Shown here: positions 4,436 to 12,913 of the stretch, piece after piece
Numbering within the stretch: the first letter of the stretch is position 1
Layout: each line of letters begins with the position of its first letter
Origin: a candidate division WOR_3 bacterium SM23_42
GTDB taxonomy: Bacteria; Hydrothermota; Tepidihabitantia; SM23-42
Reading direction: 5' to 3'
NCBI GenBank assembly: GCA_001303785.1
Contig: LJUJ01000010.1
Coordinates: forward strand, 6,765-70,764
DNA length: 64,000 bases
Made by a program: the position numbers and the translations under genes
Notes under the pieces: generated by a model
Seen by the model: the letters and a program-made list of their open reading frames with translations, nothing else
Database searches by the model: none
Told to the model about the DNA's origin: nothing

Positions 4436-5862
4436 ATGTTCAGTGAAGCAAATGTCAAATACCTAAAGAGAATCACGCTGATAGCGTTTGCGTTGCTACT
4501 GGTCATTCCCAGTGTGCTTTCTGCCCAATGGGAATCTGATTATAGGCTAACAACCAACAGTGATTCTTCTTTCACCTCATACAACAATGCCTGGTGTGTT
4601 GCAGCACACGCAGATACGGTCCACGTTGCTTGGTACGACAATCGTGATGGAAATTACGAAATATACTATAAATGCTCTTCTGATGGCGGCACAACCTGGG
4701 GGTCTGACACTAGAATAACTAACGAACCGAGCCCCTCGTATAATCCGTCAATTGCGTTTACCGGACCAAGTGTACATGTCGTGTGGGAAGATGAACGCAA
4801 TCAAGATATCGACGTATACCATAAGTGTTCGACAGATGGGGGTATTACCTGGGGGCCAGATATATTGGTTACTGATGTATCCGGGCCGCAGGGCATGCCA
4901 TCGGTTGCAGTTGTCACGGGCTGTGTGCATGTGGCTTGGGCAGATTTCACTTTGATTGGTAATACCGAGATTTACTATGGCCGTTCAACCGATGGCGGCA
5001 CGACCTGGCAGGCGCCGGTTCAGATGTCATATGCGCCTATGTTTTCGGTTTACCCTTCGATTGCAGCACATGAGTCAAACGTGCACGTTGCCTGGCAGGA
5101 TTCACGGCTTGGATGGTGGAACAATGAGATTTTTTACCGACGTTCCACAGATGGTGGCGTAAACTGGGGCGGCGAGCAGCAGCTCACCAGCGATACGACT
5201 TTCTCAAACACACCGAGCATTGCGGTATCAGGGAATAAGATAACGGTGAGACATGGAGTTCCGATTTTAGGTTGACCAATGATGCTGGCGACTCGCATTA
5301 TCCCTCAGCGGCTGCGTCAGGTTCAAACCTGCATATTACATGGCAGGACAATCGTGATGGTAACGAAGAGATCTATTATAAGGTCTCAAACGATTACGGC
5401 ATGAGCTGGGATCCTGATGTCAGGCTTACTGATGACCAGAGTGTCTCTCAGAATGCGTCCATTGCAGTCTCGGGAGAAAAAGTACATGTGGTATGGACTG
5501 ACGACAGAGACGGGAACTGGGAGGTATATTACAAGCGTAATCCAACTGGTAATCCAGGCATAGCTGAATCTCATTATAGTCACCAAACCGCCTTTAGTTT
5601 GGTTGCATCACCAAATCCGTTCTCAGAACTAACGACACTTAGCTTTGGCATGGGGCATAACGCAGCGCGCGTGACATTGAAAATCTACGACGCCACAGGT
5701 CGTGCAGTCAGACAGTGGGACTATCCGACGATAGGACTATCAGACCACGTCAGTTGGGATGGCACCGACCAGGATAATCATAAGCTAGGAAGTGGTGTTT
5801 ATTTTATGAAATGCACCAATGGTGATTGTATTGCTACTGAAAAATTACTTTTAATTAGATAA
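4436..5862 (+). pseudogene. BNR/Asp-box (sialidase-like) repeat protein with FlgD-Ig-type CTD, frameshifted near 5240
   Basis: Repeats HVxWxDxRDGNxEIYYKxSxDGGxTW continue across ORFs 4436-5275 and 5272-5862; about 20 codons of one repeat are missing at the junction. Confidence 0.75.
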
Positions 5863-11088: not shown

Positions 11089-11361
11089 TTAGATGATATC
11101 CTTTAATATCGGGCCGAGTTTGTCTTTCACCGCATCAGAAAATTCGTCGGTCCGCACCAAGGTAATGCAACAAATTTTGTTTTCTTTTTTCCAGGGGATG
11201 ACGAATAGCTTGTCACCCGGGCAGATGCCGGCCGCGTCGCGTATTTCTTTTGGCAAGACCATCTGCCCTCGCTCGTCAACGGTGACGAGAGATTCGACCT
11301 TACAGCAGGTTGATTCTTTTTCAGAACTTCCCTTATGCGGTTTAGATTCACTTTTTTTCAT
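11089..11361 (-). CDS. AbrB/MazE/SpoVT-family protein resembling HgcAB-associated protein HgcC
   Basis: SD GGAGGT, ATG 11361; CCKVESLVTVDERGQMVLPKEIR...GDKL...ICCITLV. Confidence 0.85.
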   Translation of the reverse strand: MKKSESKPHKGSSEKESTCCKVESLVTVDERGQMVLPKEIRDAAGICPGDKLFVIPWKKENKICCITLVRTDEFSDAVKDKLGPILKDII

Positions 11362-11439
11362 GCAAATAACCTCCTTTATGTCCTTCACACGATTCAGATA
11401 AATCAGTGTTCTCTGAATAATATATCATATCGTTGAGTC

Positions 11440-11504
11440 TGTCAACCCCCTCCCCATGTGCTCGGATTGGGGAGGGTTGACAAGGAGATATGTGCATTTA
11501 TACT
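11440..11504. promoter_or_regulatory. Back-to-back divergent promoters built on a palindrome
   Basis: TGTCAACCC(CC)TCCCCA...TGGGGAGGGTTGACA (11440-11482); plus strand TTGACA-N16-TATACT (11477-11504) lies 5 nt before ATG 11510. Confidence 0.7.
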
Positions 11505-11509
11505 AATCT

Positions 11510-12913
11510 ATGGTAGTAGCGTTTGCATTTGCACTGATAAGTAGCGATTTCCCGATTAGCACGGCACCTAACTACACCGGGTATCCTTCGGTGTGCTATG
11601 CCAATGACCAATTCTACGTTTTTTGGATTGACCAACGTTACCTTCCGCTGCGTTCCCTTTTCGGAGCTCGTGTTACTACCGACGGTACAGTGCTCGACCC
11701 TGATGGTCGAGAGCTCTACACGGACAGCGCTGGCTATAGTTGTGATGCAGCCTTTGACGGGACGAATTTGCTGGCGGTCACGCGTAATCATTGTTGAACC
11801 CTGGGCGAGATAATAGGAGTGCGGGTCACTCCGGATATGGATACAATAAACTCGTTCGAAATTTGCCCCAAATTTGAAATTCAAACATATCCGTCAGTTG
11901 TCTTTGATGGACAAAACTACATCGTGGTGTGGAGCGACAATAATTTCGGCGGCAATTACTACTACGTTGCGGCTGCGCGGGTCACGCCGGGCGGTGTAGT
12001 ATTGGACACGGGATCCTGCATTACCAGTGGTGTTGGGTCAAGTGAGTATCGGGCAAAAATCGCTTATGACGGAAACCGTTGCCTGGTAGTTTGGCCAAAG
12101 TCAAGCGGGCCGATTTACGGCAGGTTCATTAACAGTAATTGTCAGCCCGAGGGCGATGTCTTCATCATCGGATATGCTCCGGCTGGCGGGCCGAATATTA
12201 CCTTTGATGGGTCCAATTATCTTGTCGTCTGGTATACGGGAACGTATCCCGGGCTTGAATTATATGGTCATCTGGTTTCCCCTCAAGGCGCGCTTGTAGG
12301 CAGCCCGATTAGCATTGCGCATGGAAGCGGCTGTCATAGATGGGCTGATATCGCGTTTGATGGTACGAATTACCTGGTGGTTTGGCAGACTGGTGAGAAC
12401 AATGTTGGCCAGAAGATCTATGGGCAGTTTGTCGGTACGGATGGTTCACTCATAGGCGGTGACTTCATGATATGCGATGATAATTACAGCGAACGCTGGT
12501 GGCCTGCCGTCGCGGTTTCGGATACTAACTTCCTGACGGTCTGGGGTCAAGGATATGCATCTGCATGCAATATCTGGGGGAACGCAGACACACCCGTTAC
12601 TGCCGTAACAGAGGATCCAGGATACACGATACATGATACAGGATTGAACTTAACTGTCCACCCGAACCCATTCTCAACACTGACGACAGTCAGCTTTGGC
12701 ATAGGGCATGGCACAGAGCGTGTAACATTGAAAATCTACGATGCCACGGGTCGTTTAGTCAGACAATGGGACTATCCGACGATAAGACTATCAGACTACG
12801 TCAGTTGGGATGGGACAGACCAAGATAATCGGCAACTGGGTAGTGGTGTTTACTTCCTGAAACTTCAGGTCGGCGATTATGGTGCCACTGAAAAGGTACC
12901 TTTAATACGATAA
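11510..12913 (+). CDS. Secreted repeat (FDGxNYLVVW) protein with FlgD-Ig-type CTD; in-frame TGA at codon 96, candidate selenocysteine
   Basis: ORFs 11510 and 11819 share a frame with a single TGA at 11795-11797; translation reads AFDGTNLLAVTRNHC*TLGEIIGVRVTPD and continues the repeat. Confidence 0.7.
11816..11832 (+). promoter_or_regulatory. Putative bacterial SECIS hairpin
   Basis: GGAGTG-CGGGT-CACTCC stem-loop; stem starts 19 nt and loop 25 nt after the TGA. Confidence 0.55.

Follow-up and report, generated by a model that had tools for sequence, protein, structure and literature searches.

Described Proteins With Adjacent Cysteine and Selenocysteine

Bacterial selenoproteins are mostly cytoplasmic redox enzymes that occur in a single copy per genome. 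In mammalian thioredoxin reductase, which carries the motif Gly-Cys-Sec-Gly, the adjacent cysteine (Cys) and selenocysteine (Sec, U) can form an eight-membered selenenylsulfide ring that serves as a redox center; there the two residues occupy the penultimate position of a flavoenzyme, whose own FAD/dithiol reduces them. The locus analyzed here encodes the same Cys-Sec (CU) dipeptide in a bacterium of candidate division WOR-3 (SM23_42; GenBank assembly GCA_001303785.1), within a 64,000-nucleotide stretch of contig LJUJ01000010.1 (positions 6,765 to 70,764, forward strand) that is referred to as the window. Two open reading frames (ORFs) joined by a TGA codon very probably constitute one Sec-decoded gene of a real family, and we are similarly confident that this gene founds a multi-copy WOR-3 selenoprotein family, not listed so far, which is decoded in the standard bacterial way. 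In contrast to thioredoxin reductase, the dipeptide occupies residues 95-96 of 467 in a propeller loop of an apparently exported protein; no flavoprotein domain was found, and there is no known reductant.

Four CU families appear in the accessible part of a tabulation of prokaryotic selenoproteins (PMC13188914): SaoL (NF040728), HgcA (NF040863), KCU-star (NF033934), and a CopZ-family 2Fe-2S protein (Csac_0668). Their members are either small proteins or enzymes located in the cytoplasm or membrane, and their database entries usually break off at the CU site. The consulted parts of Haft and Gwadz (2022) also describe database truncation at CU sites, together with signal-peptide-bearing partners, in proteins other than the present family. 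The WOR-3 protein has no sequence relation to these four families, since an NCBIfam scan returned only models of type IX secretion system (T9SS) tails and of the FlgD type; unlike them, it is predicted to be a T9SS-tailed, seven-bladed beta-propeller, with one to seven motif copies per genome. A bacterial selenoprotein that is exported and envelope-associated has a model of its own, NF045500 ("Omp28-related selenoprotein," or "hypothetical protein GOS_C"), so that export by itself does not set a bacterial selenoprotein apart as new; its UxxC motif stands in a thioredoxin-like context with a different fold, and the Cys-Sec propeller protein does not match this model. NCBIfam contains no selenoprotein model for the propeller protein, the accessible table entries include none with "repeat," "propeller," "T9SS," "FG-GAP," or "sorting domain" (PMC13188914), and the available portions of the main texts on BSepDB (PMC13326102) and deep-Sep (PMC12013277) gave no hit for T9SS, WOR-3, or secretion. 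A literature search did not turn up any paper in which selenoproteins are linked to T9SS, WOR-3, or propellers, with the caveat that the family may be listed in supplements or in BSepDB itself; these searches agree with a first-pass annotation of the window, which knew of no described selenoprotein family among T9SS cargo.

Reading Frame, Homologs, and Conservation of the TGA

The two ORFs, of 95 amino acids (11510-11797) and 364 amino acids (11819-12913), share one frame in which the TGA at 11795-11797 is the sole intervening stop; it follows directly on a TGT cysteine codon (11792-11794), and if read as Sec it yields a 467-residue product with the sequence ...TRNHC-U-TLGEIIGVRVTPD... at the junction. 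The first-pass annotation had proposed this single interrupted frame together with a GGAGTG-CGGGT-CACTCC hairpin behind the TGA, a promoter and hydrophobic leader on the 5' ORF, a C-terminal sorting domain on the 3' ORF, and a readthrough product that completes the protein's own repeat, all of which were borne out by the ORFs, profile scores, and structural model described below, the promoter as a consensus match only.

A six-frame search of 41 related genomes (three families and 17 genera of one order, the source genome included) found homologs in all 41. Among the matches listed, those that span the N-terminal third contain exactly one TGA each, one of them with an additional TAG; stop-free matches lie in much longer frames or cover C-terminal parts only. 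Full-length homologs, with 37-73% identity, align across the TGA over query residues 1-467, and their products are mostly 408-483 amino acids long; the source genome itself harbors four TGA-bearing copies. In all 83 homologous loci that were fetched from these 41 genomes, a Cys-TGA pair is found near residue 95-100, followed by the pattern x-x-(G/A)-(D/N/E)-(I/V)-x-G-V-R-V-T-P; since 60 of these loci were picked from matches already flagged for one TGA and 23 came from searches, the count speaks to the position and context of the TGA, not to its frequency. The TGA is kept at the same column down to 31-37% identity, and the invariant columns of the family are F14, D41, R43, R54, G59, D63, C95, U96, G103, R105, G162, G260, G414, G446, Y448, and K462. 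In eight close pairs, the ratio of nonsynonymous to synonymous substitutions (dN/dS) ranged over 0.07-0.18 upstream of the TGA and over 0.10-0.35 beyond it, pointing to purifying selection on both halves of the gene.

The Hairpin Downstream of the TGA

The hairpin that follows the TGA is formed by GGAGTG (11816-11821) and CACTCC (11827-11832), which enclose the loop CGGGT (11822-11826). Across 81 distinct sequences, 97.1% of the 486 pair cells hold standard pairs, compared to 45-63% in controls with slid partners, and none of 500 shuffles reached the observed pairing. Three of the six stem pairs have changed on both sides; the pair in columns 27/39 falls on the third positions of a Gly and a Thr codon and shows AU in 50 sequences, CG in nine, GU in nine, GC in six, UA in two, and other combinations in five. 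RNAalifold independently predicted the same helix. Third codon positions within the stem are near-invariant (GTG in 79/81 and GTC in 79/81 sequences; elsewhere about 0-0.3 bits), and the family loop reads CGKGU, with only G or T at the third position of the CGK codon. A hairpin 3' of the UGA with G in its apical loop and compensatory changes in its stem conforms to what is expected of a bacterial selenocysteine insertion sequence (SECIS), and the covariation anticipated by the first-pass annotation is thus present. SECIS elements of the Escherichia coli fdhF type are likewise coding-sequence hairpins just 3' of the UGA, with an apical G/U, and are bound by SelB; in the WOR-3 family the conserved part is limited to the six base pairs and the five-nucleotide loop CGKGU, with no conserved bulge. 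The great regularity of the element (UGA, 18 nucleotides, 6-bp stem, loop CGKGU) makes it a simple search key, and also a compact element with which SelB recognition could be tested in an uncultured phylum.

Selenocysteine Machinery and Distribution in the Phylum

The source genome (2.53 Mb in 59 contigs, 97% complete) contains selA, selB, selD, and tRNA-Sec, all above curated cut-offs and clustered at C5:124887-138522, so that the Sec genes to be looked for after the first-pass annotation were recovered in full. The selD gene itself has an in-frame TGA in the motif KCAG-U-ASK. By the proposed mechanism, the ribosome would read the UGA at 11795-11797 as selenocysteine; SelB, recruited by the hairpin 18 nucleotides downstream of the UGA, would deliver tRNA-Sec; and the product would cross the inner membrane, after which the type IX system would bring it to the cell surface or into the medium.

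A search of 272 genomes of the phylum with the motif TGY-TGA-N18-GGNGTGCGKGTCAC, allowing up to one mismatch, found about 130 sites in 53 genomes, with one to seven sites per genome; the reversed control pattern was absent from all 272. The motif-positive genomes belong to a single class. Within the order of the source genome, which is itself left out of these counts, 26 of 30, 13 of 16, and two of two genomes of the three families (f1, f2, and f3) are positive, and in the rest of the class the motif occurs in one of one (f7), one of two (f12), and nine of 44 (f14) genomes. Four genomes of the order in which no member of the selenoprotein family was found nonetheless have selB. In favor of Sec decoding, no homolog at E<=1e-20 occurs in five genomes of the class that are Sec-less.

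Protein Architecture and Export

The features of the gene and its product are compiled in Table 1. At the N terminus of every full-length member of the family, a hydrophobic stretch precedes the sequence (A/S)DFP(I/V)(C/S)T; the leader of the window copy lacks a charged n-region. An AlphaFold2 model built on a 30-sequence alignment (mean predicted local distance difference test score, pLDDT, of 85; predicted template modeling score, pTM, of 0.75) is all-beta with about 28 strands, and the number of seven blades corresponds to the count of FDGxN-type repeats. The Cys-Sec loop lies between strands 87-93 and 100-106, which belong to one blade, so that the predicted readthrough product completes a blade.

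TABLE 1. Positions in the window of the predicted selenoprotein gene, its regulatory elements, and the regions of its product.
Feature	Position	Strand	Basis
Promoter-like site TTGACA-16 nt-TATACT, upstream of the start codon	11477..11504	+	11/12 consensus matches; consensus match only
Predicted single selenoprotein gene, 467 codons and TAA	11510..12913	+	Common frame; homologs spanning the TGA; dN/dS <0.4 on either side
Hydrophobic leader MVVAFAFALISS, ending at the conserved DFP(I/V) motif; presumed signal peptide for the general secretory translocon	11510..11548	+	Leader in every full-length member
Predicted seven-bladed beta-propeller, residues about 14-362, repeat ..FDGxNYLVVW..(I/V)YGxxV..	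11549..12595	+	AlphaFold2
Cys95-Sec96 dipeptide, TGT-TGA, in the loop between the second and third strand of blade 2	11792..11797	+	83/83 loci; AlphaFold2
SECIS-type hairpin, 6-bp stem GGAGUG/CACUCC, 5-nt loop CGGGU, 18 nt after the UGA	11816..11832	+	Comparative conservation; RNAalifold
Low-confidence linker, residues 365-391	12602..12682	+	pLDDT <50
T9SS type A C-terminal sorting domain, residues 383-467	12656..12910	+	Pfam/NCBIfam profile scores

The C-terminal domain (residues 383-463) scored 29.9 bits with TIGR04183 (cut-off 23) and 32.3 bits with FlgD_ig (cut-off 27); the Pfam model Por_Secre_tail, at 26.3 bits, remained just below its cut-off of 27. The T9SS machinery is represented in the genome by the sortase PorU (449 bits, cut-off 420) and by SprA (377.6 bits summed, cut-off 200), and roughly 80-90 further matches to the sorting-domain region of the selenoprotein were found. 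The combination of leader, propeller, linker, and type A T9SS domain implies export across the inner membrane and then by T9SS, a route that we regard as likely. As a point against it, Por_Secre_tail reached E<=0.01 in only seven of 30 aligned members; in the remaining members the tail is shorter and has just the invariant G414, G446, Y448, and K462 in common.

A Foldseek search returned generic propellers at 7-15% identity, among them CylK (7roo, E 5e-9), prolyl oligopeptidases, WD40 proteins, and neuraminidases, and gave no functional lead. The second-best hit, PorZ (PDB 5m11, E 7e-9), likewise combines beta-propeller and T9SS C-terminal domain; yet the likeness is one of architecture only, since PorZ has two propellers and no Sec, and the match has 13% identity and a TM-score of 0.29.

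The Cys-Sec Site

In propellers, the loops between the second and third strand normally form the ligand-binding face, and we infer that the Cys-Sec pair lies there. The favored chemistry, put forward tentatively and at somewhat less than even probability, is that of a vicinal selenenylsulfide or selenol-thiol surface site which would react with extracellular disulfides, sulfur species, or oxidants; it is derived from the chemistry of the motif alone, which counts against it. A context for such a surface redox role is provided by the same genome, which encodes exported UxxC selenoproteins and other selenoproteins with C-terminal sorting domains, their TGA conserved in relatives. A genuine Sec protein could also use the pair as a ligand for soft metals or metal sulfides (Hg, Cu, Ni, Fe-S minerals, or organometals) instead of as a redox couple, with the propeller acting as a surface module for metal capture or mineral attachment; this alternative is doubtful but deserves to be weighed. 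Other bacterial CU selenoproteins are tied to metal chemistry, namely the MerB-like SaoL, HgcA, and the CopZ-family 2Fe-2S protein, as far as the consulted parts of these sources go (PMC13188914; Haft and Gwadz, 2022), and the sequencing runs with at least half of the sampled words are labeled as marine sediment, estuary, or seawater metagenomes. However, the propeller protein has no homology to these CU families (its NCBIfam matches are confined to the C-terminal domain), the family offers no further invariant Cys or His with which a metal site could be completed, and no conserved metal-handling neighbor was seen in the window. The surface selenenylsulfide, or sulfur-reactive, redox site is favored over the soft-metal ligand.

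Alternatives to Selenocysteine Decoding

Readthrough of the UGA without Sec, by which a near-cognate or suppressor tRNA would insert Trp, Cys, Gly, or Arg while the hairpin merely stimulates the process, is very improbable. It could draw on the small size of the hairpin, which is unremarkable when a single sequence is considered, and on selenium not having been seen directly; but the tRNA-SeC(tca) at C5:124887-124980 is the only tRNA with anticodon UCA that ARAGORN found in the genome, and TGA is a frequent normal stop. In addition, 48 of the 53 motif-positive genomes have selA, and two more have selB above the cut-off; selA was detected in 122 of all 272 genomes, and the motif occurs in only five of the 150 selA-negative ones, including the two with selB. 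The hairpin is close in size and position to that of selD in the same genome (6-bp stem, five-nucleotide loop, 16 nucleotides after the UGA), and the invariant neighboring Cys fits a Sec redox pair. A crude genome scan also indicated further candidates, HdrA among them, whose stems comprise 6-7 bp and lie between +12 and +23.

The reading of the gene callers, that a 95-residue secreted peptide precedes an independent 364-residue T9SS protein, or else that a nonsense mutation or sequencing error has produced a pseudogene, corresponds to the content of public protein sets, where only 3' fragments of 320-379 amino acids appear, under the names "T9SS type A sorting domain-containing protein" or "hypothetical"; it is nevertheless extremely unlikely, given a break at the same column in all 83 loci down to the most distant homologs, purifying selection on both parts, a single propeller blade that spans the TGA, and a 3' ORF without leader, whose first start codon is a GTG inside the hairpin with GGAG directly abutting. 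Furthermore, contigs of runs from two other studies bridge the TGA (11413-12537 and 11640-11999) with no difference listed at 11795-11797; these independent assemblies agree with the expectation of the first-pass annotation for the DNA at this position, and its claim that standard annotation splits the gene in two is right in view of the 3' fragments in public sets. As a consequence of this fragmentary representation, WOR-3 selenoproteins and T9SS cargo are counted too low. Reassignment of TGA in the genetic code was rejected, since TGA terminates 377 of the 1115 frames of at least 300 codons in this genome and is thus a normal stop.

Several observations weigh against selenocysteine decoding, or fail to lend it the support that might be hoped for. 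A pair of Sec and Cys forms is the usual criterion for a new selenoprotein, and no orthologous Cys form was found in protein databases, in five Sec-less genomes, or by profile search: the protein homolog search returned only 3' fragments and long repeat proteins; none of the five Sec-less genomes, which are of the same class, yielded a homolog at E<=1e-20; and in the profile search, which covered 1.84 billion representatives, long multi-repeat proteins crowded out the results. The first-pass annotation had looked for a TGA that is either conserved or alternates with TGY; conservation was found, always after Cys in the 83 fetched loci, and alternation was not, as far as strict Cys-form orthologs are concerned. 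Two copies (G151:C104:5562-5599 and G032:C10:29688-29725) read CGT-TGA, or Arg-Sec, in place of TGY-TGA with the hairpin otherwise intact, and may be variants or decaying copies. Three motif-positive genomes, all fragmented and of 87-96% completeness, showed neither selA nor selB. The hairpin is short, and no conserved pairs lengthen its stem; Rfam gave no match at E<=10 within 11600-12000; and in a 76-nucleotide single-sequence fold (z = -0.10) 84 of 200 shuffles folded at least as well, so that the significance of the hairpin is drawn from the comparison of homologs and single-sequence folding is not counted as support. The hairpin is itself coding sequence and specifies the conserved peptide G-V-R-V-T-P, to which it owes some of its conservation. 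Finally, no RNA run was among the listed runs that carry the sequence, a result that is uninformative on expression.

The long WOR-3 repeat proteins are also relevant here. They share the blade repeat DGTNYLVVWxDxRxGxxDIYGARVTPxG with the selenoprotein, but lack the TGA and are two to five times longer. A profile of the two N-terminal blades matched 16173 proteins at E<=0.001, the top 150 of which are 618-2303 amino acids long with 8-19 repeat matches each. In 435 aligned blades of these long relatives, the columns of the Cys-Sec pair are mostly occupied by R-N (56 blades), R-S (48), or R-G (33), with CC in four blades and Cys at the first position in 20, which is a further point on the negative side. 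The Cys-Sec pair therefore replaces the Arg of an ancestral loop motif: in blade 2, the invariant pair stands in place of the Arg and the following residue of the ancestral repeat ...VVWxDxRxGxxDIYGARV..., and the selenoprotein family is derived, in compact form, from a repeat family of very large size.

Further Selenoprotein Families in the Genome

Other genes with signal peptides or T9SS tails in the source genome also combine an in-frame TGA with a hairpin, and at least four further families of T9SS-tailed selenoproteins are recognized. An FG-GAP family is represented by C38:1614-2846, C38:3116-4345, and C43:72615-73856 (the first and third designated L114 and L115) and combines a signal peptide with an FG-GAP propeller and a C-terminal sorting domain; its TGA stands in the motif G-U-C-Q-G-(S/A)-T-V-A-V-C-D-W-N-E-D and has a hairpin of 7 bp at +16; 19 of the 20 matches listed, across nine of 21 genomes including the source genome, have exactly one TGA, and no NCBIfam selenoprotein model matched. 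Five adjacent genes on the reverse strand (L109-L113, C5:74672-82884) each encode a signal peptide and carry one in-frame TGA with a hairpin; two are Omp28-like UxxC proteins (DDGUGFC and EGUSGCW), and three are proteins of 634-703 amino acids (QCxDDUGD / GCUSGHC). The longer four, L110-L113, have T9SS tails, and L109 has no Pfam hit. L109 and L111 are distant relatives of NF045500, at 26-42 bits (cut-off 200). Matches that cover the N terminus of the 634-residue type have one TGA in 21 of 21 genomes, and 48 of the 49 matches listed for the Omp28-like UxxC type have one TGA. A second Cys-Sec dipeptide family is indicated by the T9SS-tailed candidate L116 (C46:4837-5799, reverse strand) with the motif W-F-R-C-U-G-D-H-S; eight of the 11 matches listed for this RCUGD type have one TGA, and the other three cover the C-terminal part only or are weak.

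In contrast to the usual single-copy cytoplasmic redox enzyme, the Cys-Sec protein is probably a non-enzyme-like surface propeller delivered by the T9SS; it occurs in one to seven motif copies per genome and stands among several families of T9SS-tailed selenoproteins; this points to selenium use outside the cell. As a speculation to which we give a rather low probability, this WOR-3 class may export a whole selenoproteome via T9SS for a selenol-based cell-surface chemistry of a sediment bacterium, comprising at least five unrelated families whose proteins have signal peptides and T9SS tails (Cys-Sec propeller, FG-GAP GUCQG, QCxDDUGD/GCUSGHC, Omp28-like UxxC, and RCUGD); the propellers would then be diversified binding scaffolds sharing one Se-S "warhead" for the capture or reduction of sulfur, disulfide, or metal species outside the cell, with the exported UxxC selenoproteins as redox partners.

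Two HdrA-like genes on contig C17 contain the motif MDCxxU-ILGPK, with 7-bp hairpins at +23. ARAGORN also called a tRNA-Pyl(cta) at C5, complement 195547-195635, which may be a false call.

Gene Neighborhood

Inspection of the neighborhood covered the window; within it, no conserved functional partner was seen among neighbors that include a MazE/AbrB-like gene, OmpA, a TonB-type barrel, and other T9SS-tailed genes. The divergent neighbor on the reverse strand (11089-11388) encodes a 99-residue protein of the MazE/AbrB type (SpoVT-like) with a Cys-rich N-terminal stretch. A short upstream ORF of eight codons (11490-11516, forward strand), with ATG after AAGGAG and ending in TAG, sits within the promoter-like site and overlaps the ATG at 11510 in another frame. 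Further upstream, a BNR_2-like ORF of 279 amino acids (4436-5275, forward strand) is followed with a 4-nucleotide overlap by an ORF of 196 amino acids in another frame (5272-5862, forward strand), which encodes the last blades and a T9SS tail with 44% identity to the C-terminal part of the selenoprotein; the two may be a frameshifted long paralog or two real genes.

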